From: an uncultured Actinomycetes bacterium
GTDB taxonomy: Bacteria > Actinomycetota > UBA4738 > HRBIN12
DNA length: 64,000 nt
Reading direction: 5' to 3'
NCBI GenBank assembly: GCA_963704725.1
Contig: OY969934.1
Location: 32,001 to 96,000, forward strand
A program made the translations under genes and the position numbers. This document shows, in pieces, positions 3,970 to 50,441 of the stretch; the first letter of the stretch is position 1; every line of letters starts with the position of its first letter. Below the pieces are notes generated by a model, which was not told the origin of the DNA, ran no database searches, and saw only the letters and a list, made by a program, of their open reading frames with translations.

Positions 3970-4905
3970 TCAGAGACGGCCGAGCGCAGGTGCCACCTCC
4001 TCGCCGAACCGCTCGAGCTGCTCCACGCCGTCCCCCACGGGCCAGAGGAATACGCGCCGGACGCCCGCCTCCGCGTACGCGGCCAGCCGTTCGGCGCACC
4101 GGTCGGCGGGTCCGACCAGGAGCCGCTCGGCCAGCTCGTCGGGGTCGCGGCCGACGGCTGGACTCACCCACTCCTCGAGCACGCGGCGCGCGGCCGCCGG
4201 GTCGTCCTCGAGACGGAACCACATGGTGGCAAGCGCGTTCGGGAACGTCTCCGGGTCCTTGCCGTGGAGCGGGAGCCGCTCGCGGAGCACGGCCCAAGCC
4301 CCGGCGAAGCCCTCCGGAGTCGTGTTGTACGCCGACGCCAGCCACCCGTCGCCGAGGCGCGCCACGCGGCGGAGACCGGCGTCCGAGCCCCAGCTCCCCA
4401 CCCAGATCGGCGGGCCGCCGGGCTGCGCCGGTGCGGGCTCCAGGCGGACGCCGCGGGTGGAGTAGAACGTGCCCTCGAACGGCTCGCCCTCCGGACGCCA
4501 TAGGGCCCGCAGCGCCTGGATCGCCTCCTCGAACCTCGGCCAGCGCTCGTCCCAGTCGAGCTCGGCGGCCTCGTAGTCGGGGCGGTACGAGCCCGGGCCC
4601 ACGCCGACCACCAGCCGGCCGCCTGACAACAGGTCGATCGCGCCGAGGGACTTCGCGAGCGGGATGGGGCCCCGGACGACGGCGAGCGCGATCGTCGTCG
4701 CGACCGTCATCCCACCCGTCGCCCCGAGAACCGACGCCAGCGCGGTCGGGCCGTCGAGCCAGGGCCGGCGGAACTGGAGGTGGTCGTTGACCGAGACGGC
4801 CGCGAAGCCGAGGCGCTCGGCCGTCCTGACGTACTCGATCAAGGTCGTCAGGTCGTACCGCGGCTCGTCCCAAGAGAGCAGCGGGAGATGCACGCCGAAG
4901 TCCAC
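3970..4905 (-). CDS. LLM-class (luciferase-like) flavin/F420-dependent oxidoreductase
   Basis: AERLGF..V.V.DH, DLLSGGRL..GVG.G, PPIWVG, GDGW motifs. Confidence 0.9.
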   Translation of the reverse strand: MDFGVHLPLLSWDEPRYDLTTLIEYVRTAERLGFAAVSVNDHLQFRRPWLDGPTALASVLGATGGMTVATTIALAVVRGPIPLAKSLGAIDLLSGGRLVVGVGPGSYRPDYEAAELDWDERWPRFEEAIQALRALWRPEGEPFEGTFYSTRGVRLEPAPAQPGGPPIWVGSWGSDAGLRRVARLGDGWLASAYNTTPEGFAGAWAVLRERLPLHGKDPETFPNALATMWFRLEDDPAAARRVLEEWVSPAVGRDPDELAERLLVGPADRCAERLAAYAEAGVRRVFLWPVGDGVEQLERFGEEVAPALGRL

Positions 4906-4947
4906 CCTCGCCTCCTCGTCGCGGGACCGGCAGCGTACGCAGACCGG

Positions 4948-5331
4948 CTAGATCAGGCTCTCCCACAGCCCGAGCGTGTTGCCCTCGGTGTCCCTGAAGT
5001 AGGCGAACGCGCCCATGTCCGGGATCTCCTGCCGGGGCTGGACGACGCTCCCGCCGGCCGCCTCGATGCGCTTCAGCGCGTCGTCGATCGAGTCCACGTT
5101 CACCGTGACGACCGGAGACGGGATGTCGGGCGAGCGCAGCATCATGCCGCCGTTGATCGCGCCGGGCTCCTTCGGCATCATCTTGTCGTCGACCGGGACG
5201 GTGGTCACCGTCGTGTACGTCCCCTCCCCGAACTGCATGTCCTGCAGGTCCCACTCGAACGACGAACCGTAGAACTCCTTGGCCCGGCCGAGATCGTCGA
5301 CCGTGATCTCGAAGTGCACGACCTTGTCCAT
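4948..5331 (-). CDS. VOC/glyoxalase family protein
   Basis: MDKVVHFEI...FYG..F.W...GAINGG...FAYFRDTEGN.LGLWE. Confidence 0.9.
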   Translation of the reverse strand: MDKVVHFEITVDDLGRAKEFYGSSFEWDLQDMQFGEGTYTTVTTVPVDDKMMPKEPGAINGGMMLRSPDIPSPVVTVNVDSIDDALKRIEAAGGSVVQPRQEIPDMGAFAYFRDTEGNTLGLWESLI

Positions 5332-5476
5332 CGCCCACGCTCCTTCCCGACGCCGCGGCTCGACGGTCCGAGCCGCGCCCTCGGTTGTACCCGGGTCGAA
5401 GGCGCCCGCGCAAGGCACCGATCGGCCGACAGGAGGGAGTCCTCCTGCTTCCGGATCGGCCCGCAGGGCGCCGGGG

Positions 5477-6133
5477 TTACCAGCTCGCGCCGACCGCGGC
5501 GGCGAGGAACCTCATGAGCGGCGAGATCTTCTCGCAGCTGCGGACGAAGACCTTGGGGAGATCGGACCGCTGCATCTGCGCGTCCGTCAGCGGGACCGAG
5601 GCGGTGAAGCTCTTCCGCTTGATGTCCTCGATCATTGGGTGGCCCGCGTCGAACCCCCGCGGCGGGCGCTTCAGCGCGTCCTCGGAGGGGTTGAGCGTGC
5701 CGCGGACCTTCCTCCAGTCGGACGGGCGCTCGACGATCCGCTCGCGGATCCGTTGGAGGGCGGCCGGCTCGGGCATCCACATGCCGCCCGCCACGAAGCA
5801 CTCCCCCGGCTCGACATGCAGGTAGTAGCCGGGGCCGTGCACGCCGGCCCCGAGCGGGAAGTGCGCGCCCGCGTGCGTCTTGTACGGGCTCTTGTCTTTG
5901 GAGAACCGGACGTCACGGTAGATCCGGAACAGCGAGCCGCCGACGGGCCGGGGATCGGCCACGAGGTTGCGGCTCAGCTTCCGCAGCTCGGGGCCGACGT
6001 CGGAGATGAACTGGAGGAACGGCTCCTTGAGGGACTCCTCGTACCGCTCCTTGTTCTTCGCGAACCACTCCCGGTCGTTGTGGCGCTTCAGCTCGCGAAG
6101 GAACGCGAACGTCTCGGCATCGAAGTACGCCAT
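5477..6133 (-). CDS. DUF2461 family protein
   Basis: FL.EL..HNDREWF, FRIYRDVRFSKDKSPYKT signature; AGGAG RBS. Confidence 0.9.
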   Translation of the reverse strand: MAYFDAETFAFLRELKRHNDREWFAKNKERYEESLKEPFLQFISDVGPELRKLSRNLVADPRPVGGSLFRIYRDVRFSKDKSPYKTHAGAHFPLGAGVHGPGYYLHVEPGECFVAGGMWMPEPAALQRIRERIVERPSDWRKVRGTLNPSEDALKRPPRGFDAGHPMIEDIKRKSFTASVPLTDAQMQRSDLPKVFVRSCEKISPLMRFLAAAVGASW

Positions 6134-6293
6134 GGTGTCCTCTCCTGCTCCGGGCTCGATCGAACCTCCGCCTAGTCTCCCTCACCGGCGGGATCGGTGG
6201 GACCAACAGCCCGGCCGGCGCGCGTCGCTCGACCCGGGATCCTCCCGCCGGGCGGCACTAGCCTCAAGCCGAGGCCGACGGAAGGGAGGTCCC

Positions 6294-7016
6294 GTGCGCA
6301 CGAACGCGATCGCCAGAATCATCGTCGCGTCGTCGCTGGTCATGCTTGGCGTCGCCTGCACGAAGACCGACACCGTGACCGGATCCGGGAATATCGTGGA
6401 ACGGGTCATCCGGACCACAGGGTTCGATCACATCAAGGCGATGACCGCCTTCCAGGTTCACGTCACGCTCGGCGGGCCCGAATCCGTGACGGTGCGGCTG
6501 GACGACAACCTCGTCGACCTGCTGGACGCCGGCGTCGCCGACGGGACGCTCCATCTCGGACTGGAACCGAACACGTCCTTCCGGGACGTCACGCTCGAGG
6601 CCGACGTCGTGGTGAGCGAGCTGTCCGGTATCGACGTCGAGGGGGCGTCGAGCGTCCGCCTCACCGGGCGGCTCGCCGGTGATGCGCTCGAGCTCATGGC
6701 TTCGGGCGCCGGCACCCTCGATCTGCTCGTCGACACCCGGTCGATCGACCTACGGCTGGAGGGTGGCTCGACGGCCACGCTCAGGGGGATCGTGTCCGAT
6801 CTCACCGTGCGAGGCGAGGGCGCGAGCCATCTGAACGCCCGCGGTCTAACGGCGAGCACGCTCGATCTCGACCTGGCGGGGGCGTGCACGGCCGCGCTCG
6901 AGGTCACGGGATCGATCTCGGCTCGACTCTCGGGGGCCTCAACGCTCCGATACGGGGGCACCCCGCAGTTCCTCCGTCCCGACGTCTCCGGCGCCTCGAC
7001 GATCACCCCTCTGTAG
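6294..7016 (+). CDS. DUF2807 (GIN-domain) beta-solenoid lipoprotein
   Basis: GTG after GGGAGG; lipobox GVAC; GSGN, DDNL, repeated xGAS turns. Confidence 0.85.
   Translation: MRTNAIARIIVASSLVMLGVACTKTDTVTGSGNIVERVIRTTGFDHIKAMTAFQVHVTLGGPESVTVRLDDNLVDLLDAGVADGTLHLGLEPNTSFRDVTLEADVVVSELSGIDVEGASSVRLTGRLAGDALELMASGAGTLDLLVDTRSIDLRLEGGSTATLRGIVSDLTVRGEGASHLNARGLTASTLDLDLAGACTAALEVTGSISARLSGASTLRYGGTPQFLRPDVSGASTITPL

Positions 7017-41693: not shown

Positions 41694-41697
<4 letters not shown>
40510..41697 (-). CDS. MacB/FtsX-like ABC permease
   Basis: LSALGIAIG, LG.NLL.V, VGGVGIANVM...VLERR.EIGLRRALGA, P.EALR. Confidence 0.93.
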
Positions 41698-42409
<712 letters not shown>

Positions 42410-42413
<4 letters not shown>

Positions 42414-43477
42414 GAGGCGGTCACCACCTCGAGGCCCTCCGAGACGCCATCGCCGGTCACCTCGACGAACCCGTCAGCGAAGTCGCCGGTGTCGACGGCG
42501 ACGAGGTGCGTCGCACCGCCGCCGTCCACGACCTCGAGCGCGAACCCGCCCTCGGCCAGCGCGAGGAGCCCCTCGACCGGGACGGCCAGCACGCCCTGGG
42601 CCCGGGAGGTCTCGACGTCGACGTCCACGGGAGCTTCGTCGAGGTCGGTGTCGACGTCGCCCGCGAGGCGGATCGTCACCTCGACGGTCGGATCCGCCGT
42701 GGGATCGTCAGGGTTGGTCTCCGCGACGCGCGAGACGAACGACACGCGTCCGCCGATCCGCTGGCCGCTCGGCAGCTCGACCCGGACCCGATCCCCCTTG
42801 GCGACGAGGTCCTGATCGGTGGCATCGAGGTCGAGCGTCACGACGCGCTCGAGGGACGACGTCGTCGCGACCTGGACGGCGGCCGCCACGCCCTGGCCGA
42901 TCTCGAGCGTGTGCGACCCCATGCGGCGGGCGGTGGGGAAGAACGCCACGTCTCCGAGCTCGACCACACCGGTCCGGTCCAGCCCGAGATCCTCCTGCCA
43001 GTCGCGGACGGCCTCGGCCGTGTCCGAGTCGAACTCGCCCGTCACCTCGAGGTCGCCGCCATCGTCGAACCCCAACGCGAGCAGGTTGCGCTGGAGCTGT
43101 CGGACGTCGAGCCCTTCATCGCCGGACGACAGCGCCCGGTACGCCGGCATCTCGCCGATCATCAGCACCACCGGCCGGTCGTCCACCTCGTACAGGACGT
43201 CCCCCCGGCGGAGCTCGGCGCCCTCCTCGGCGATCCACGTGAGGGTTCCCGAGCGCCCGGCGGTCAGGGCTCGCTCGTCCGCGTACCCGAGCGACCCGTC
43301 GAACGTCTCGCGCTCGACGAGATCGCGCCGCTCCACCGCGGCGGTCGCGAGGTCGTTGGAGTCCTCGGCGGCCGCCGCCTGGCTCGAACCGTCGCCGGAG
43401 AAGGCGAACCACCCGACGGCGCCGGCGGCCATCACCGCCACCGCGCCGGCGGCCAGCCACCGCTTAGTTGCCGTCAT
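42410..43477 (-). CDS. Membrane-fusion adaptor with peptidoglycan-binding domain
   Basis: N-terminal TM; G.DV.QLQ.NL..LGF...G.F...T..AV..WQ..LGL..TG; VLAVPV..L. Confidence 0.85.
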
Positions 43478-44069
43478 CGCCGTTCACCACCCTCTGGCCG
43501 CCGCCGGGAAGGACGTCGTCGAGGATCGGGCGGCACGCCTCGTCGGCCACCTGGAAGTCCGAATCCTGCGGATCGATGCCGTCGCCGCCCTGCTGGATGA
43601 ATCCGCCGTTGCCCGAGAAGTCCGGGTCGGGCATGTCGATCCCGTGATCGCGCATGCACTGCGCGTACTCGACCATCGCGTCCTGGAAGGCGGCCTGGTC
43701 CTCAGGCGAGATCTGCCCCGGCCCCTCGCCCCGCGGCAGCAGCTCCTGGCACGCGTCCATCGCGTCCGCGATCTGCTCGCGGTCCGCGTCGCTGGGCGGC
43801 CCCCCGCCGCCGCCGCCGACGCCGATCGTGATCCCGCCGTCCTCGCCGATCGTCGGGTCGGGGAAGTCCTCGATCCCGTTGTCGCGCATGCACTGGGCGA
43901 AGTCGGCGAGCGCGTCCTCCGGGTCGACCGACGGGCTCGCGCTCGGCGAGCTCGAGGGGTCCTCGCCTCCCTGCAGCGTCGCCACGCCGTCGCCCTGCTC
44001 GCTCCCGCACGCGACGAGCGCGAGCGACAGTGCCGCGACGAGCGCGAGCGTCTTCCACACCTTCCTCAT
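43464..44069 (-). CDS. Lipoprotein with two (F/Y)AQCMRD.GI..PDP...C repeats
   Basis: Lipobox LVAC; duplicated Cys-pair motif; GAGGAGG RBS. Confidence 0.85.
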   Translation of the reverse strand: MRKVWKTLALVAALSLALVACGSEQGDGVATLQGGEDPSSSPSASPSVDPEDALADFAQCMRDNGIEDFPDPTIGEDGGITIGVGGGGGGPPSDADREQIADAMDACQELLPRGEGPGQISPEDQAAFQDAMVEYAQCMRDHGIDMPDPDFSGNGGFIQQGGDGIDPQDSDFQVADEACRPILDDVLPGGGQRVVNGDDGN

Positions 44070-44167: not shown

Positions 44168-45499
44168 TCAGGGGGGAGGCGGGAGCTCCGTGCCCGAGGC
44201 GGGAAGCTCGACCCGGACGATCGCCCCACCGTCGTCGGCGTTCGTCGCGAAGACCCGGCCGCCGTGTGACTCGACGACCTGTCGCACGATCGCCAGCCCG
44301 AGCCCGGAGCCGGGCTTGGAGCGCGCCGCGGTGGATCGGTAGAACCGATCGAACACGTGCGGCAGGTCCTCGCGCGGGAACCCCGAGCCGTGGTCACGAA
44401 CGGTGAGCACGCCGTCGCGCACCGCGACCTCGATCACCCCGTCCGGTGGACTCCACTTCTCCGCGTTGTCGAGCAGGTTCCGCGCGGCTCGATCGATCCG
44501 GGAGGCGTCCCCGACCACCACACAGGGGTCCAGGTCGGAGACGACCCGCACGTCGCGGACGCGACGCTCGAACGCCCGCACCGCCCCCGCCACCACCCGG
44601 TCGAGCCGGACGTCCCCGAGCACGGCCGGTTGCGCGCCGTCGCGTGCGAGCTCGACGAGGTCGTTCACGGTCGTGGTCAGCTCCTCGAGCTGGTCCGTGA
44701 GATCACGGAGCAGCCGCTCGCGCTCGGCCGGCCCGAGCTCGGCGCCGCTGGCCAGCACGTCGATGTTCGTCCGGATGCTCGTGATCGGCGTGCGAAGCTC
44801 GTGCGACGCGTCGGCCACGAGCTGCTTCTGCGCGCCCACCGACGCCTCCAGCGCCGCCAGCATCCCGTTGAAGGTCGTGGCGAGGCGGCCGATCTCGTCG
44901 TCCCCGGCCGGCGGCGCGTCGATCCGGTGCGAGAGGTCGCCCGTCTCGGTGACCCGCTCCGCCGCCTCGGTCAGCCGCCGGACGGGACCGACCGCCGCAG
45001 CCGAGACCCCACCGCCCAGAGCGACCGCAAGGGCGACTCCCCCGCCGGCCACCACGAGGAGGATGAGCGCGAGCCGACGGAGGGACCGGTCGACGTCGGT
45101 GAGCGGAGCGGCAAGCGTGAGCGTGAATCCGCCGATGCCCTCCGTGTACACGCGGTAGTGAATCCCCGAGACGTCCTGGTCGTTCATCGTGGGGGGGCCG
45201 GGCGAGGCGGCCGGGAACTCCGGCCCGCCGCCGACGCGGATCACGGCACCCCGCGGCGTCTCCACCTGCATGTAGAAGACGCGGTCGCCGGCGAGCGGCG
45301 CCGGCACCGAGACCGATCCGCCGACCACCTGCGGCAGCGGCGCGCGTTGGTGGATGAGGTCCGCTCGCGCCCGGAGCTCGTCATCGACCTCGCCCCGGAG
45401 CTGCGCCCGGACGACGAACCACGATGCGAGGGAGGCCAGCACGACCGCGACGGCGACGGCCGCGGCGGCCGACACCGTGAGCCGGCGGCGGAAGGTCAC
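44168..45499 (-). CDS. MprB-like HAMP sensor histidine kinase
   Basis: [39 protein letters not shown]; GTGA-coupled to regulator. Confidence 0.95.
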
Positions 45500-46176
45500 G
45501 GCGCCTCCTTCATCACGTAGCCGACCCCCCGGACGGTGTGGATCAGGCGCGGCTCTCCGTTCGCCTCCGTCTTGCGCCGCAGGTACCCCACGTACACCTC
45601 GAGCGCGTTCGACGTCGGCCCGAAGTCGTAGCCCCACACGCGATCGAAGATCACCTCTCGCGTGAGCACCCGGCGCGGGTTGAGGAGGAAGAGCTCCAGG
45701 AGCAGGTACTCGGTCCTCGTGAGGTCGATCGCCCGGTCGTCGCGACGGACCTCGTGGGTCACCGGATCCAGCGTGAGCCCGGCGAACACGAGCGGCTTCT
45801 CGTCGGCGTTGGGCACCGTGCGCCGGAGCAGGGCGCGGATCCTCGCCAGCAGCTCCTCCAGGGCGAACGGCTTGACCAGGTAGTCGTCGGCCCCGGCGTC
45901 GAGGCCCTCCACGCGGTCGCCGACCGCGTCGCGGGCGGTGAGCATGAGCACCGGCGTCCGATCGCCCGAGGCGCGGAGCTCACGGCAGGCCCCGAGACCG
46001 TCGAGCCGCGGCATCAAGATGTCGAGCACGACGACGTCGGGCGCGTCGGCCGCCATGCGTTCGAGCCCGTCGCGCCCGTCGACCGCGGTCGTCACGCCGT
46101 ACCCGTTGGAGCGGAGCGCGCGCTCGAGCGCATCGCGCACGGCCGGCTCGTCGTCGACGACCAGCACCTTCATCAC
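45496..46176 (-). CDS. MprA-like OmpR-family response regulator
   Basis: [64 protein letters not shown]. Confidence 0.95.
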
Positions 46177-46198
46177 GGCTCCAGTGTGCCCGAACGCG

Positions 46199-46220
46199 CT
46201 GAGAGCGGAATGAGAGCGGA
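46199..46220 (-). promoter_or_regulatory. MprA-type autoregulatory box
   Basis: Minus strand TCTCAT-TCCGC-TCTCAG (TGAGAGCGGA twice at 11-bp period); CACACT 6 bp before the GTG start. Confidence 0.7.
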
Positions 46221-46226
46221 CACGGA

Positions 46227-46258
46227 GCGATCCCCGGCCGCGGGTCGCCGGGGATCGC
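46227..46258 (-). terminator. Hairpin downstream of 46290..47126
   Basis: GCGATCCCCGGC-N8-GCCGGGGATCGC, no U-tract. Confidence 0.5.
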
Positions 46259-46289
46259 GTTCGGAGCGCCCTGGGGGAGAGGGAGGCAG

Positions 46290-47126
46290 CTACAGGGACG
46301 ACTCCGCCGTGTCGGTGGTCGAGCGGTCGAAGTGCCCGCCGAACATCCCGCGGCCCGGACCGCCCGGCATGGGGGGGAAGGGGAACGGCGCGAGATCTCC
46401 GTTCACGATCGCGCCCGCCTGGTCGTGGAGGTCCGCCGCGCGCTCGTCGGCCTCGTCGCTAGTGATCCACCCGTTCCGGGTGGCCGCGTCGAGCCGGTCC
46501 TGGAGCGCGCCGACGATCGCGTCGACCACGTCCGACACCGCGACCCCGTGGTCCTCGGCGACCTCGGCCACCGTCGCGCCGCTCGCGACCTCCGACAGGA
46601 GCTCGGCCGGCCTGATGCCGATCGCGTCGGCGGCCGCGGCGAGGGGCCCGTCGGCGAACCCCCACAGGCCGGGATGACCGACGATCGGCATCCGGACGTC
46701 GGGCATCGGGAGGTCGCCGTTCACGAGATCGGTCACGCGCTGCTCGAGATCGGCCGCGCGCTCGTCCGCCTCCTGTTGGCTGAGCACGCCGTCCTGCACG
46801 AGCCGGTCCAGCCGGGCGCGCTCGTCCGCCACGATCGCGTCGACCACGTCGGCGGGATCGATGCCGTGCGCCTCCGCCACGTCGGCGATCGTGCGACCGT
46901 CGCGGAGGGCCGAAACGAGGGTGGCCGGCTCGACGCCGATGGCGTCCGCGGCGGCCGCGAGCGGCCCGTCCCCGAGGAAGCGGTCGCAGATGGCCGTCAC
47001 CGGCCCGTCGCCAGCCGGGGATGCGGCCAGCCCGAGCCCCGGGGTGAAGACGACGGCGCCGACGACCATGCCCACGGTCACCGAGCCCGCCACCATCCCC
47101 GCCATCACCAGCTTCCGACCGGCCAT
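46290..47126 (-). CDS. Exported helical protein with two about 90-aa repeats
   Basis: N-terminal TM/signal; [14 protein letters not shown]...G.T.A.VAE.HG...DVVDAIV...EADERAADL...VNGDL twice; AGGAG RBS. Confidence 0.8.
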
Positions 47127-47182
47127 CGAGGGCTCCTTCCTCCGGTGGATCGATCCGTTCACACCCAGGGTCCCCCCGACGT

Positions 47183-47221
47183 GTGAGGAGAGCCTGAGAG
47201 GGGGGTGAAGGTTCGCTGACC
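47183..47221 (-). promoter_or_regulatory. MprA-type direct-repeat array in divergent intergenic region
   Basis: Plus-strand GTGAGG 47183, CTGAGA 47194, GTGAAG 47205, CTGACC 47216 at 11-bp period. Confidence 0.65.
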
Positions 47222-47320
47222 GCCTCACTCACAGCGGACGCCCAGGGTCCTCCTCGTGCGCTCCCAGCTCCGGGTGGTGCCATCGGTCGAGAGACGGAGC
47301 CGACGACGGAGGACCACGAG

Positions 47321-47665
47321 ATGAACGACCGATCGACGAGCATGCCCGGTGGGGCGACCGCCCTCCGGCTGCCCCCGCCCCCGAGGCCCGCGAACCCCGC
47401 ACCACGGCGGCGACCCCGGCGGCGACACCCCGCGGCGCGCTCGAGGCTCGTCACCGGCGCGATCAGCGCTCTGGCGTTCCTCGGACTCGGCGGCGCCATG
47501 GCCGCGAACGCCGTCCCGAGCGGGACCACGAGTCAGGAGCGGGCCGGCGGAGCGGACGCCGCGACCGGCGAAACCACGGTCTCGTCCCAGGATCTGCTGA
47601 CGGGAGCTCAGCCCGCGGCTCCCGTCTTCGGCCAGACACCGACGAGCACCAGCGGTGGCAGCTGA
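47321..47665 (+). CDS. Small Arg-rich/TM protein with disordered tail ending in SGGS (candidate flavinylation substrate)
   Basis: GGAGG RBS; RRRPRRR then hydrophobic helix; stop overlaps ApbE start. Confidence 0.7.
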   Translation: MNDRSTSMPGGATALRLPPPPRPANPAPRRRPRRRHPAARSRLVTGAISALAFLGLGGAMAANAVPSGTTSQERAGGADAATGETTVSSQDLLTGAQPAAPVFGQTPTSTSGGS

Positions 47666-48581
47666 GCGCCGCTTCCGCGCGATGGGCACCGACGTCCACG
47701 TCGTGGTCGTGGGCGGCGCTGCGTCGCTCGGGGATCGGGCGGTCGGGCACATCGAGCGACTGGAGGAGCTGTGGAGCCGGTTCCGCCCCACCAGCGAGGT
47801 GAGCCGTCTGAACGCGATGGCCGGCCGGCCGGTGACCGTCTCGAGCGAGACCCTGACCCTGGTGATGCGAGCGCTCGAGGGCGCCCGCATCACGGCCGGC
47901 CGGTTCGACCCCACGGTCCTGGGGGCGGTCATCCGCGCCGGCTACGACCGCTCCTTCGAGCTGCTGGACGACGCCTCGCCGCCCGGCACCTCGCTCCTCG
48001 AGCTGGGGTGGGAGGCGATCCTCGTCGACGAGCGCGCCTCGACCGTCACGGTGCCACGGGGAGTCGGCTTCGACCCCGGGGGCATCGGCAAGGGCTACGC
48101 CGCCGACCTCGTCGTCGACGAGCTGCTCGCGGAGGGCGCGGCCGGCGCCTGCGTGAACGTCGGTGGTGACCTGCGGGCGGAGGGCGCCACCGAGGACGGG
48201 GAACCCTGGGCGTTCGCCATCGATCCCGAGCGCTCCGGGAACGAGATCGCCCTCGTGGGGATGTACGGGGGCGCGGTGGCGACGAGCACCCGGACCCGCC
48301 GGACGCTCGGCCCGGCCGCCGAGGGGCGGCACCACCTGATCGACCCGTCGACCGGAGATCCCGCGGCCGCGGGCGTCCGGTCCGCCAGCGTGGTTGCGGG
48401 TCGGGGGTGGCAGGCGGAGGTCGCCGCGAAGGCCGCGTTCGTGTCCGGCGTCAAGGACGGGACGGCGCTCCTGCACGCCTTCGGCCTGGACGGGGTGCTC
48501 GTGGACGACGACGGACGCCTGCACCCGACACCCGGCCTCGCCCGGTTCACCGGACCGCGGACCGTGGGAGCAACGCCGTGA
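47655..48581 (+). CDS. apbE: FAD:protein FMN transferase
   Basis: FRAMGT, SEVSRLN, GRFDPTV, DPGGIGKGYAAD, VNVGGD, ATS, HHLIDP; no signal peptide. Confidence 0.93.
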   Translation: MAAERRFRAMGTDVHVVVVGGAASLGDRAVGHIERLEELWSRFRPTSEVSRLNAMAGRPVTVSSETLTLVMRALEGARITAGRFDPTVLGAVIRAGYDRSFELLDDASPPGTSLLELGWEAILVDERASTVTVPRGVGFDPGGIGKGYAADLVVDELLAEGAAGACVNVGGDLRAEGATEDGEPWAFAIDPERSGNEIALVGMYGGAVATSTRTRRTLGPAAEGRHHLIDPSTGDPAAAGVRSASVVAGRGWQAEVAAKAAFVSGVKDGTALLHAFGLDGVLVDDDGRLHPTPGLARFTGPRTVGATP

Positions 48582-49147
48582 GCGGGCAGCTGCTCTGGTA
48601 CTCGGCCCGGGCGAGCGGCATCGTCGCCTGGTCGCTCGCCGCCGGCTCGGTGCTGTGGGGGCTCGTCCTGTCGACCGACGTGATGCGCCGCCGGTCCCGT
48701 CCCGGGTGGGTGCTCGACCTCCACCGGTTCCTGGGCGGTGCGGCCATGTCGTTCACCGGCCTGCACGTCCTGTCGGTCCTGCTCGACGGGTACGTCCACT
48801 TCGGTCTGGTGAACGTGCTCGTCCCGTTCACGGGCTCCTGGCACCCGGTCGCCGTGGCCTGGGGCATCGTGGGCTTCTACGCCCTGCTCGCGGTGGAGCT
48901 CACCTCGCTCGCCCGGCGTCACGTGCCGCACCGCCTGTGGCGGCGGGTCCACTTCGGCGGCTTCGCGGTGTTCGCCGCGACGACGGCCCACGCGCTCACG
49001 GTCGGCACCGACCGGGGGGTGCACGCCTACGTCCTGGTCGTGCTGGCGGTCACGACGGTGGCGGCCGCCATGACCGCGGCCCGCGTGGCGCGACGGCGGT
49101 CTCGCCGCCGGGTCCCGGCCGCGGTGCTCGGCACGCGTCCGGTCTAG
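48578..49147 (+). CDS. Ferric reductase-like (MsrQ-like) transmembrane cytochrome b
   Basis: W...RASG, LHRFL, LHVL, TS..R...WRRVH, AHAL..GTD: four His in TM helices; GTGA-coupled. Confidence 0.88.
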   Translation: MSGQLLWYSARASGIVAWSLAAGSVLWGLVLSTDVMRRRSRPGWVLDLHRFLGGAAMSFTGLHVLSVLLDGYVHFGLVNVLVPFTGSWHPVAVAWGIVGFYALLAVELTSLARRHVPHRLWRRVHFGGFAVFAATTAHALTVGTDRGVHAYVLVVLAVTTVAAAMTAARVARRRSRRRVPAAVLGTRPV

Positions 49148-49181
49148 CATTCGCGACGACCGCCACACGAAGGAGCCTCCC

Positions 49182-49754
49182 ATGGCCGAGTTCCATGTCC
49201 TGTCCGACGGTTACCTCTCCGACCACGACGACCGCGTGGGCTCGACGGTGAGCTTCGTCCGCGACGGCGAAGCGCTCGTGGTCGTCGATCCGGGCCTGGT
49301 GGCCTCGCGTCGCTCGATCCTCGATCCGCTCGCCGCCCTCGGGGTGGCGCCCGAGGCGATCACCGACGTCGTGATCTCCCACCACCATCCCGACCACACG
49401 CTGAACGTCGCGCTGTTCCCGAACGCGCGTCTGCACGACCACTGGGCGTGGTATCGCGACGATCTGTGGACGTCGCGACCGGCCGAGGGGTTCGAGATCT
49501 CCGGCGGCGTCCGGCTGATCGAGACGCCCGGCCACACCCCGCAGGACATCTCGACGCTCGTCGACACGGACGAGGGCCTCGTCGTCGCGACGCACCTGTG
49601 GTGGACGGCGACCGGCCCGGAGGAGGACCCCTACGCGCCCGACCCGGCTCTGGTCCACGAGAACCGGGCCCGGGTGCTCGCGCTCCCCGGCCTCGTCCGC
49701 ATCGTGCCGGGACACGGGCCGAGCTTCGTCCCCTCCGGGGACACGCCGGGCTGA
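49182..49754 (+). CDS. MBL-fold metallo-hydrolase
   Basis: VDPG, SHHHPDH, TPGHT, VPGHG; AGGAG RBS. Confidence 0.9.
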   Translation: MAEFHVLSDGYLSDHDDRVGSTVSFVRDGEALVVVDPGLVASRRSILDPLAALGVAPEAITDVVISHHHPDHTLNVALFPNARLHDHWAWYRDDLWTSRPAEGFEISGGVRLIETPGHTPQDISTLVDTDEGLVVATHLWWTATGPEEDPYAPDPALVHENRARVLALPGLVRIVPGHGPSFVPSGDTPG

Positions 49755-49757
49755 CGG

Positions 49758-50441
49758 CTACGAACCGGGTGCCCTGAGCGACGCGAGCGGGGGCCGTGCT
49801 CCCGCCGGCGCCGCGAGCCACCGCTCGAACGCCGACCGCACCGCCGGCCATTCGCGATCGAGCATCGAGAACCACGCCGTGTCGCGGTTGCGCCCCTTCA
49901 CGATCATGTGCTGGCGGAACACGCCCTCGAACGTGAACCCCAGGCGGAGCGCCGCGGCGCGGGAGCGCGCGTTCAGCGCATCGCACTTCCACTCGACCCG
50001 CCGGTACCCGAGCGCATCGAAAGCCTCGGCGAGCATCAGGGCGACCGCCTCCGTGTTCGCCTCCGTCCGCTGCGCCACCGGCGCGTGCCAGATGTGACCG
50101 AGCTCTATCCGGCGCATCGCCGTGTCCACGTTCAGGTAGCTCGTCATGCCGACGGGGCCGCGGCCGCTGCAGACGGCGTAGAACCGCGGATCCTCCGAGG
50201 GCGCGATCGACGCGATCCACGCGCGCATCTCCTCGGCTCGGGCGAACGGTCCGTACGGCATGTACGTCCACAGCCGCGCCGCCTCGTCGCTTCCGTCGTG
50301 GGCGGCCCGCCACAGCGCGTCGCCATGCGCCTTCGCGTCGATGGGCTCGAGTCGCACGTAACGGCCCCGGAGCGTTCCCGGGCCCGGCCGGCGCGCCCGG
50401 CCTTCCTCGACGCGCTCTCCGACCTGCGGTTCCGTTCCCAT
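49758..50441 (-). CDS. RimJ/RimL-type GNAT acetyltransferase
   Basis: GRYVRLEP, IELGHIW, GYRRVEWKC.ALN..S..AA.RLGFTFEG.FR, KGRNRDT.W. Confidence 0.92.
   Translation of the reverse strand: MGTEPQVGERVEEGRARRPGPGTLRGRYVRLEPIDAKAHGDALWRAAHDGSDEAARLWTYMPYGPFARAEEMRAWIASIAPSEDPRFYAVCSGRGPVGMTSYLNVDTAMRRIELGHIWHAPVAQRTEANTEAVALMLAEAFDALGYRRVEWKCDALNARSRAAALRLGFTFEGVFRQHMIVKGRNRDTAWFSMLDREWPAVRSAFERWLAAPAGARPPLASLRAPGS

Follow-up and report, generated by a model that had tools for sequence, protein, structure and literature searches.

A candidate minimal flavinylation-associated electron-transfer module centred on a small membrane protein with a conserved C-terminal serine

The closest described relatives of the locus reported here are the MsrQ-like gene clusters, found mainly in Actinobacteria, in which apbE lies beside a gene for a ferric-reductase-type di-heme membrane protein and which typically include a gene for a flavin mononucleotide (FMN)-binding-domain protein as well (Meheust et al. 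2021, eLife, PMC8238504). Some of the membrane proteins carry a C-terminal nicotinamide adenine dinucleotide (NAD)-binding module, and electrons are proposed to pass from the membrane or cytosol to a flavin that is carried outside the cytosol by a membrane-anchored protein. Huang et al. (2024, bioRxiv 10.1101/2024.03.13.584918) have published an AlphaFold model in which MsrQ is paired with a flavinylated protein anchored in the membrane. We analysed a 64,000-nucleotide stretch (the window) of a contig from an uncultured Actinomycetes bacterium (OY969934.1), in which three genes, g1, apbE and g3, share these features. They differ from the MsrQ-like clusters in that the FMN-binding-domain gene is replaced by the domain-less g1 with a terminal motif, ApbE is signal-less, and the window copy of g3 falls below the threshold of PF01794. 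The 2021 survey kept only those ApbE and FMN-binding genes for which a signal peptide was predicted, and it defined MsrQ-like proteins by PF01794 (PMC8238504), and would thus miss a g1/ApbE/g3 module.

Three other systems are close to parts of the locus. FMN_red proteins, whose genes adjoin apbE, receive their flavin on a C-terminal extension that is unstructured (bioRxiv 10.1101/2024.03.13.584918); that extension carries the canonical motif and folds back over a flavodoxin-like domain in which there is a flavin pocket, whereas g1 has no folded domain and the acceptor would be its last residue. Seven-residue flavin-tags are reported to work best at a protein terminus (PMC12052999), and the engineered tag (Tong et al. 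2021, via PMC12052999) indicates that a short unstructured terminal peptide suffices for ApbE. The tag is artificial and follows the canonical D-x-x-[S/T]-G-A-[S/T], while g1 would be a natural counterpart with another motif. Cytosolic ApbEs exist (PMC12052999), and the Klebsiella pneumoniae enzyme that serves soluble fumarate reductase resembles the enzyme of the window in being cytoplasmic and without a signal peptide, but it acts on a cytoplasmic FMN_bind enzyme (PMC12052999), where the substrate proposed here is a small membrane protein whose tail would be exported. Searches of the full-text literature, subscription journals aside, returned no description of a natural ApbE substrate that is domain-less or modified at its C-terminus, of the g1 family, or of the Glu/Lys clade of ApbE set out below. 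The module is apparently undescribed, in line with a preliminary description made from the sequence alone, which had put it forward as a candidate undescribed system.

The three genes lie on the + strand, overlap one another and span 47321-49147, as first described:

47321-47665, + strand: g1, a 114-amino-acid (aa) small membrane protein of an unannotated family and proposed flavin carrier (open reading frame, homology searches).
47655-48581, + strand: apbE, signal-less, 308 aa, a putative flavin adenine dinucleotide (FAD):protein FMN transferase of a variant clade (PF02424, E 5e-54).
48578-49147, + strand: g3, a 189-aa putative di-heme cytochrome b with five helices, of the ferric-reductase-domain (NOX/STEAP/MsrQ) superfamily (alignment, AlphaFold2 model, Foldseek).

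The GTG start of ApbE is located inside the last codons of g1, in the +1 frame relative to g1, and the overlap is 11 nucleotides. The g3 open reading frame (ORF) opens at 48407, but the GTG at 48578 is the position at which all 54 relatives begin; g3 was therefore assigned to 48578-49147 (189 aa), a small correction to the preliminary description. The corrected start overlaps the ApbE stop as GTGA. The window is GC-rich (~73%), and long antisense or off-frame ORFs with a third-position GC content (GC3) >0.9 occur throughout it (e.g. 48547-48867 on the − strand and 45662-45883 on the + strand), so that ORF lists in this DNA need homology support. Such ORFs misled a simple gene caller based on GC3, which overlooked g1, g3 and the response regulator upstream of them; its output served for control sets only. 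An Rfam scan of 46000-50000 gave nothing at E≤1, i.e. no FMN riboswitch, and a scan of 46900-49400 for consensus promoters and terminators found none. It is highly probable that g1, ApbE and g3 work together as one functional module.

The g1 protein is divided as follows:

47405-47446, + strand: N-terminal motif RR-x-H-P-A-x-x-x-R (R29 to R42), conserved, probably cytoplasmic (alignment A2).
47447-47515, + strand: hydrophobic helix with near-invariant S49, a membrane anchor or signal-peptide h-region with AMA/ANA (AlphaFold2 model, A2).
47516-47644, + strand: low-complexity S/T/A/G linker, variable in length and sequence, holding the non-conserved DAATGET (AlphaFold2, A3).
47645-47662, + strand: C-terminal hexapeptide STSGGS-COOH, conserved; Ser114 is the proposed FMN acceptor (A3, terminal counts).

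All features of g1 named in the preliminary description were present in the sequence: an Arg cluster in the N-terminus, which contains APRRRPRRRHPAARSR; a single hydrophobic stretch, LVTGAISALAFLGLGGAMAANAV, ending AMAANA; a tail rich in S/T/G/A that includes DAATGET at 47555-47575; and the C-terminus TSTSGGS followed by a TGA stop. No Pfam or NCBIfam match was found for g1 at E≤0.01, the known ApbE substrate families (FMN_bind, NqrB/RnfD, DUF2271, DUF3570, FMN_red, Flavodoxin_4) included. In alignment A2 (41 sequences) A38 and R42 are invariant, H36 is conserved in at least 90%, and S49 (S25 in A2) is near-invariant. The AlphaFold2 model of residues 25-114 contains one helix (residues 13-39 of the fragment), with a predicted local distance difference test score (pLDDT) of 86-97, followed by an unstructured tail of block-mean pLDDT 48-64 with no predicted secondary structure. 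The tails of g1 relatives are composed of 19% Ala, 19% Thr and 16% Ser, and alignment A3 shows no conservation across the linker. By the positive-inside rule, the charge distribution would place the N-terminus in the cytoplasm and the tail outside. The consensus for twin-arginine translocation (Tat) is S/T-R-R-x-F-L-K directly before the hydrophobic region. The Arg pair of g1 stands ~9 residues ahead of its hydrophobic stretch and is followed by x-H-P-A-x-x-x-R (A2), and several members keep one Arg only; the earlier suggestion of Tat export is not borne out, the pair being too far from the helix and its flanking residues a misfit.

A word-index search with g1 found just two relatives among 197 candidates, both of which share the N-terminal motif and an ..S-x-G-S ending and have no DAATGET. 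DAATGET was rejected as a flavinylation site, being present in the window protein but conserved neither in these closest relatives nor in A3. A profile of the 44 N-terminal residues only (motif and helix, A2), which excludes the C-terminus, was run against 1.84 billion representative proteins and recovered 756 representatives (clusters at 50% identity) at E≤1e-3, with a median length of 112 aa. The terminus was assessed in the best 148 of these 756, minus the window protein and the two relatives already known. The ending [ST]x[GA]S-COOH was found in 102 of 148 representatives, with nine more close variants. Inside the same tails the motif occupies 128 of 8090 windows (1.6%) versus 99 of 141 termini, on which ground its origin as a by-product of S/T/G/A-rich composition was rejected. 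The commonest endings are SHGS (24), TRGS (14) and SHAS (11). Among the 102 motif-ending representatives Thr stands at -5 in 81, and SGGS, the ending in the window, occurs in one; the family terminal consensus is T-x-[ST]-[H/R/..]-[G/A]-S. A3 shows no exception to the final Ser, and at least 90% of its sequences have Gly at -1.

With a small N-terminal model of g1, 43 ORFs resembling it were picked up across the window and 39 loci, ending GS (32), AS (6), SS (2) or otherwise (3), while 591 other ORFs of the same loci, taken as the control, included five GS and six AS endings. The last Ser is encoded by AGC in 34, AGT in four and TCN in two, and the codons of the preceding Gly vary at the third base (GGC 13, GGG 10, GGA 9). 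Switching between the two Ser codon classes requires a non-Ser intermediate, and a class that is frozen while the third base of the adjacent Gly varies fits a serine that can never be lost. This variation, together with the retention of the ending before g3 or before nothing, led us to reject the idea that the GS ending is dictated by the start codon or ribosome-binding site of ApbE that overlaps it. The terminal serine thus appears to be under protein-level selection, and the motif holds whichever gene comes after g1. A conserved terminal (S/T)GGS had been proposed as a check; it is the extreme C-terminus that is conserved (38/43 ending GS or AS, and 102/148), and the motif itself is not (S/T)GGS.

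All 30 g1 hits in the ESM Atlas came from Actinomycetota; their clusters bear the automatic name 'hypothetical protein' and share no Pfam family. Many g1 relatives carry a Trp ~20-25 residues from the end (..D-W-S-A.., W-G-A-S, W-S-G-A-Q-P-A-A-P; A3 columns ~160-175). A loose pattern for this feature fits 18 of the 148 representatives, and g1 of the window has Leu there (residues 90-92, LLT, 47588-47596).

The linkage of the three genes was examined in the best 80 of 262 confirmed ApbE relatives (602 pattern matches), with ~4 kb of flanking sequence on each side. The closest ApbE relatives are up to 63% identical and come from genomes labelled Actinomycetota or Acidimicrobiales. A g3 gene is also encoded in 71 of the 80 loci. 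In a family-blind test, a complete same-strand ORF with a hydrophobic stretch, adjoining ApbE or g3 and ending [ST]x[GAS]S plus an optional R/H/G, was present in 51 of 80 loci (43 with the strict [ST]x[GA]S), compared with 4 of 305 non-adjacent transmembrane-like ORFs used as controls. Six loci start too near ApbE (contig end) to be judged. Of 23 misses, seven were rescued by eye (L024, L046, L053, L061, L065, L066, L076), the ORF having failed the hydrophobicity or completeness filter; eight are without g3 too; and eight are variants, in which L034 ends ..CTTPSGATVQC, L035 and L059 end ..CTGSKCH(H), L048, L080, L073 and L079 have a different short protein, and L045 is probably frameshifted. 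Canonical-like endings occur in L039 and L040 (SGAS), L068 (TGAS) and L034 (..SGATVQC), and as variants these would bridge the family motif to the canonical one.

The orders g1-ApbE-g3, ApbE-g1-g3 and ApbE-g3-g1 were all seen, and in eight loci g1 lies directly upstream of g3 with ApbE ~2.5 kb off behind a histidine kinase. Chloroflexota versions of g1 lack the HPA motif and keep the architecture, with endings ..F-R-R-P-I-T-R-[ST]-R-G-S, ..TRSSR or ..TRSS. Of 19 representatives from the N-terminal profile that were scanned, three are predicted proteins that also contain fragments of ApbE or Ferric_reduct, which ties g1 to both partners in contigs not chosen by ApbE; in two of the three (P0011 and P0054) the sequence between the parts appears to be out-of-frame junk, and these two look like read-through of frameshifted assemblies. 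A programmed frameshift joining g1 to ApbE, prompted by the +1 frame of ApbE and the fusion in L070, was also considered and set aside, since no slippery context was found and such a frameshift cannot explain loci with g1 before g3. As judged from these comparisons, g1 is a real family, neither a chance ORF nor a split ApbE, and is the conserved domain-less partner of the ApbE/cytochrome pair.

Two g1-like genes each were observed in three loci (L032:2788-4011; L021:3661-3993 and 5735-6517; L023:3277-3996 and 4734-6320), with differing linkers and similar endings (SSSGS and QSHGS; SSHGS twice). In L070:3278-4933, one of the misses without a nearby g3, a g1-like N-terminus and helix are followed in the same frame by a stretch rich in Pro, Ala and His and then by a complete ApbE domain (548 aa); this fusion is either a membrane-anchored, outward-facing ApbE or an assembly frameshift.

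The third gene, g3, was characterized by alignment and structure prediction. In alignment A1 (55 sequences) H49, H63, H125 and H138 are invariant and lie within helices, as two pairs (H49/H63 and H125/H138) on two helices with a spacing of ~13-14, and these align with the pairs of SpNOX. Pfam scans found no FMN-binding or reductase domain, so that the earlier account of a protein with four transmembrane His and neither domain held; indeed, g3 has no Pfam or NCBIfam match, and that of the window does not match PF01794 at E≤0.1 (cut-off 28 bits). With the A1 profile (55 sequences), SpNOX (Streptococcus pneumoniae NADPH oxidase, 8qq7/8qt6) was detected at a marginal E of 0.0034 and STEAP4 at E 0.19. 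The AlphaFold2 model (pLDDT 92.8) has five long helices plus short ones, versus six in NOX and STEAP. In a Foldseek search with this model, ranks 1-14 were all STEAP, NOX or DUOX chains, with STEAP4, STEAP2, STEAP1, SpNOX (8qt6) and NOX5 (5o0t) at probability 1.00 and a query-based TM-score (TMq) of 0.53-0.64. The window copy thus shares the two His pairs on two helices and the fold of STEAP4, STEAP1, NOX5 and SpNOX, but has no dehydrogenase domain and, going by the five long helices of the model, may differ in helix number. Sequence and model together predict that g3 is a cytochrome of the ferric-reductase type (NOX/STEAP/MsrQ fold), putatively di-heme.

Three g3 orthologues (L030:4906-6573, L031:956-2740, L040:4710-6497; Nocardioidaceae, Propionibacteriales) are fused to FAD_binding_6, NAD_binding_1 and 2Fe-2S Fer2 domains and score 28.2-32.8 bits on Ferric_reduct. 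These fusions point to an outward flow of electrons from cytoplasmic reduced NAD or NAD phosphate (NAD(P)H). Loci of the L030/L040 type would make a complete chain from NAD(P)H to the outside with two genes plus ApbE. Upstream of the fused genes, the g1-like genes of L030 and L040 encode proteins that end RSRAS and QSGAS.

By the positive-inside rule on its charged loops, g3 would have its N-terminus outside and its C-terminus inside. Apart from the histidines, W7, R11, P83 and G143 are invariant and D70, P90 and D145 are conserved in at least 90%, most of them on the presumed outer face. On the same face a loop right after the fourth His, G143-T144-D145 (49004-49012), consists of the invariant Gly followed by Thr/Ser and Asp; from its sequence it could be a docking or flavin-phosphate site. 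This G-[T/S]-D loop and Ser49 of g1 were considered as alternative flavin acceptors and were not retained, neither being closer to the motif than the terminus and the g3 loop sharing the compartment problem discussed below. A complex prediction of g3 with two hemes and g1 (A1, A3) gave a best score of 0.29 against a mark of 0.32, which counts neither way.

ApbE matched PF02424 with 184 bits (cut-off 25.6) over residues 10-275 and has relatives in the PDB, 1vrm, 4ifu and 6nxi among them, to E 1e-27. Its frame contains a stop 18 codons upstream of the GTG, and the intervening residues RELSPRLPSSARHRRAPA are not hydrophobic, so that no signal peptide or lipobox is possible, which confirms what had been read from the sequence at the outset. 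Members of this family move FMN from FAD onto a protein Ser/Thr in a Mg-dependent reaction, and most, though not all, have a lipoprotein signal peptide at the N-terminus. The enzyme keeps GGIGKG (FAD-binding), ATS (Ser211) and HHLIDP (His226/227). The following feature sets it apart:

48417-48431, + strand: E255...K259 at the positions of the metal-site-1 ligands, which are Asp...Thr in solved ApbEs (HMMER alignments to 1vrm, 4ifu).

In these alignments, ADalxTA in 1vrm and 4ifu (Thermotoga TM1553 and Treponema Ftp) corresponds to AEvaaKA in ApbE of the window. Among 81 clade sequences the pair is E..K in 61, D..K in 10 and E..T in seven, with three truncated; Lys thus replaces Thr in 71/81 and Glu replaces Asp in 68/81. 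Metal site 1 of E. coli Ftp is bound by D280/T284 (Table 3, PMC4767422), and Ser241, His257 and Asp285 are given as conserved active-site residues of ApbE in V. cholerae numbering (PMC12052999). The g1-paired clade therefore has an active-site signature (Glu/Lys) of its own, in which the lysine may stand in for metal or meet the terminal carboxylate of the substrate. Covariation of the Lys/Thr state with the type of g1 ending was dropped on account of too few independent cases: of the seven Thr-type loci, L048, L080, L073 and L079 (two close pairs) have non-terminal endings and L033, L043 and L065 do not.

A canonical substrate for this ApbE was sought nearby. No member of FMN_bind or another known substrate family was found among 68 [ST]GA[ST]-bearing ORFs (53 of them in the 80 loci, 15 in the window) or among another 35 ORFs of the window. 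Among the ORFs screened, no candidate substrate other than g1 was seen, in keeping with the preliminary description. An SGAT in the divergent upstream gene (46293-47228) is located in one of two internal repeats, the other being without it, and was judged to be due to chance.

Taken together, these data favor a model in which the terminal serine of g1 would be flavinylated by the neighbouring ApbE, to which we assign a probability of about 0.45, and the same rough figure applies to the proposal that g1/ApbE/g3 would be a minimal version of the MsrQ-like systems for flavinylation-associated electron transfer across the membrane. In this model the di-heme cytochrome b g3 would move electrons across the membrane from a quinol or a separate reductase or, in some relatives, from the fused NAD(P)H/FAD/2Fe-2S module. 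The Arg-rich N-terminus of g1 would be cytoplasmic, its one helix would be in the membrane and its 50-aa disordered tail outside. In the cytoplasm, ApbE would draw on FAD to link FMN to the Ser114 hydroxyl through a phosphoester bond; the short tail would be exported post-translationally after loading, and the flavin would cross the membrane last. On the outer side, the tethered flavin would be reduced by the outer heme of g3 and would in turn reduce an extracytoplasmic acceptor. The seven-residue tags, the cytosolic ApbEs and the C-terminal extensions of FMN_red provide precedent for a terminal Ser as acceptor.

Several observations weigh against this model, which as regards the flavin on g1 is a good inference from sequence. 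ApbE is cytoplasmic by its sequence, whereas the charge distribution of g1 puts the tail outside, and modification before export is an ad hoc answer to this conflict of compartments; it is conceivable because g1 is short and most of it leaves the ribosome about when the helix emerges. The ending departs from the known one: compared with the canonical D-x-x-[S/T]-G-A-[S/T], TSTSGGS in the window has no Asp and has Gly for Ala; the family consensus agrees with the canonical motif at -3, -1 and 0, but its position -2 is His in 44 and Arg in 25 of the 102 motif-ending representatives, and mostly not Gly; the canonical [ST]GA[ST] ends none of the 148 representatives; and Asp stands at -6 in only 8 of 102. 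The position of V. cholerae Asp285 is Glu255 in this ApbE, so that the enzyme is atypical and its chemistry may differ. The loci were sampled by ApbE similarity, and linkage from the side of g1 is known only via the three fused or frameshifted representatives. The substrate screen of the loci covered only [ST]GA[ST]-bearing ORFs that passed the GC3 filter, ~4 kb on each side, and that of the window covered 64 kb of a ~3.45-Mb contig, elsewhere on which a canonical substrate may sit.

The best-surviving alternative, which is unlikely but has the most in its favor, is that g1 is an unflavinylated accessory subunit or assembly factor of g3, with ApbE serving a canonical flavoprotein elsewhere in the genome; the C-terminal peptide would then dock on g3, bind metal or heme via His, be sensed by the kinase or be cut by a protease. 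Such a role would suit the eight loci in which g1 adjoins g3 without ApbE, although ApbE is still within ~2.5 kb there. It would also suit the near-invariant small-residue pattern of the helix, G-x-x-S49 (A2), which is typical of helix packing, as well as His being the commonest residue at -2 and the departure of the terminal motif from the canonical one, but an invariant terminal hydroxyl residue preceded by small residues suits a Ser/Thr-directed transferase. Most of the genome lies outside the 64-kb view; however, no FMN_bind protein was found among the ORFs screened near 80 clade ApbE genes, and a substrate-less ApbE in so many loci would be odd where MsrQ-like clusters are described as typically including a substrate (PMC8238504).

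That the helix is a cleaved signal peptide is quite improbable. In that event a free flavopeptide of 45-60 residues, or a lipoprotein in the Cys-bearing subfamily, would serve as a released or wall-trapped shuttle. The AxA-like sites (AMA, ANA) after the helix and an h-region rich in G, A and S (A2) are in keeping with cleavage, as is a lipobox-like L-T-G-C at the same place in 17 of 141 representatives. Cys is not general, however, and RR-x-HPA-xxx-R is conserved beyond the needs of a signal n-region.

It is very improbable that the Glu/Lys ApbE no longer transfers FMN to protein and is instead a cytoplasmic FAD-binding or FAD-hydrolysing flavin-trafficking protein, or that the group it transfers to the terminal Ser is a different portion of the nucleotide. 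The E255/K259 substitutions are common to most of the clade, and ApbE relatives with FAD pyrophosphatase activity are documented, one residue being able to switch the activity (PMC4767422). Nevertheless, the FAD-binding GGIGKG, the Ser of ATS and the His of HHLIDP are kept, the change from Asp to Glu is conservative, and the conserved terminal Ser encoded next door argues for a protein acceptor. The last alternative, that g1 is not a gene of its own but a chance GC-rich ORF or a frameshift-detached ApbE anchor, is suggested by the in-frame L070 fusion, by P0011 and P0054, which also join g1 and ApbE, and by the many long chance ORFs in GC-rich DNA, but is largely refuted by the stop and preceding residues kept in 38/43 ORFs, including ones with no ApbE after them, by third-base variation indicative of protein-level selection, by the 756 clusters of median length 112 aa, and by the out-of-frame junk between the parts of P0011 and P0054.

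A more elaborate version of the flavinylated-serine model, doubtful when taken as a whole, can be drawn from the same sequences. Here g1 would be a disordered, ribosomally made protein with FMN on the hydroxyl of its last residue, and a cytoplasmic ApbE clade, with a metal ligand changed to Lys, would recognise T-x-[ST]-[H/R]-[G/A]-S-COOH. The flavin would be dragged through the membrane as the trailing end, with no need for FAD export. Outside, a long 'fishing-line' redox arm or a released flavopeptide would receive electrons from a minimal di-heme cytochrome and convey them across the cell wall of monoderm Acidimicrobiia and Chloroflexota, with a two-component system in control.

Surveys of protein flavinylation have left some genomes with orphan apbE genes without an explanation, 4% once DUF2271 and DUF3570 had been added, and signal-less ApbEs were excluded on purpose (PMC8238504). 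The module may be one missing class of ApbE substrate. It is not rare, with 756 clusters from soil and water Actinomycetota and Chloroflexota. If the terminal serine were flavinylated, g1 would be the first natural substrate without a flavin-binding fold, and a second recognition motif with a matching enzyme variant would be at hand for protein tagging. A new way of passing electrons out of the cell would be implied, with a very small, portable respiratory part (three genes, ~600 aa) by which Gram-positive-type cells could transfer electrons beyond the cytosol, and the testable question would arise of how a cofactor-bearing chain end crosses the membrane.

Two recurrent neighbours of the module are located upstream of it in the window:

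45496-46176, − strand: OmpR-type response regulator (Pfam domains).
44168-45637, − strand: HAMP histidine kinase (Pfam domains).

Homologues of the response regulator were present within the ~4-kb flanks of 36/80 loci and those of the kinase in 33/80, on either side and either strand; loci with two-component genes include L002, L003, L015-L018, L037, L044, L072 and L076, and in the L015 and L055 group ApbE is directly behind the kinase gene. The two-component pair is a probable regulator of the module, which may be induced by the pair or signal to it.

Downstream of the kinase on the same (−) strand, three genes occupy 41697-44069. They encode a lipoprotein with two C-M-R-D-x-G-I-[DE]-x-P-D-P repeats and no family match (43464-44069), a PG_binding_1 protein (42413-43483) and an ABC ATPase (41697-42473); together with the two-component genes they look like a cluster related to the envelope. 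The divergent neighbour of g1 (46290-47228, − strand) encodes a 312-aa membrane-anchored protein with two ~95-aa helical repeats (..IG..PA.L...... G.T.A.VAE.HG....DVVDAIV..), for which no convincing family match was found; L060 and L071 encode weak relatives of it, as does L046 on visual inspection. The g1-like ORF of Chloroflexota loci is often preceded by a gene for a PepSY-domain protein whose tail is acidic and rich in His (…DDHEDEHEDE…). Neighbours of the PepSY/heme type (L069:2618-3535, L037:3034-3555, L078:2757-3566 and L071:2108-2668, the last being Haem_bd, PF14376) hint at metal or heme handling around the module.

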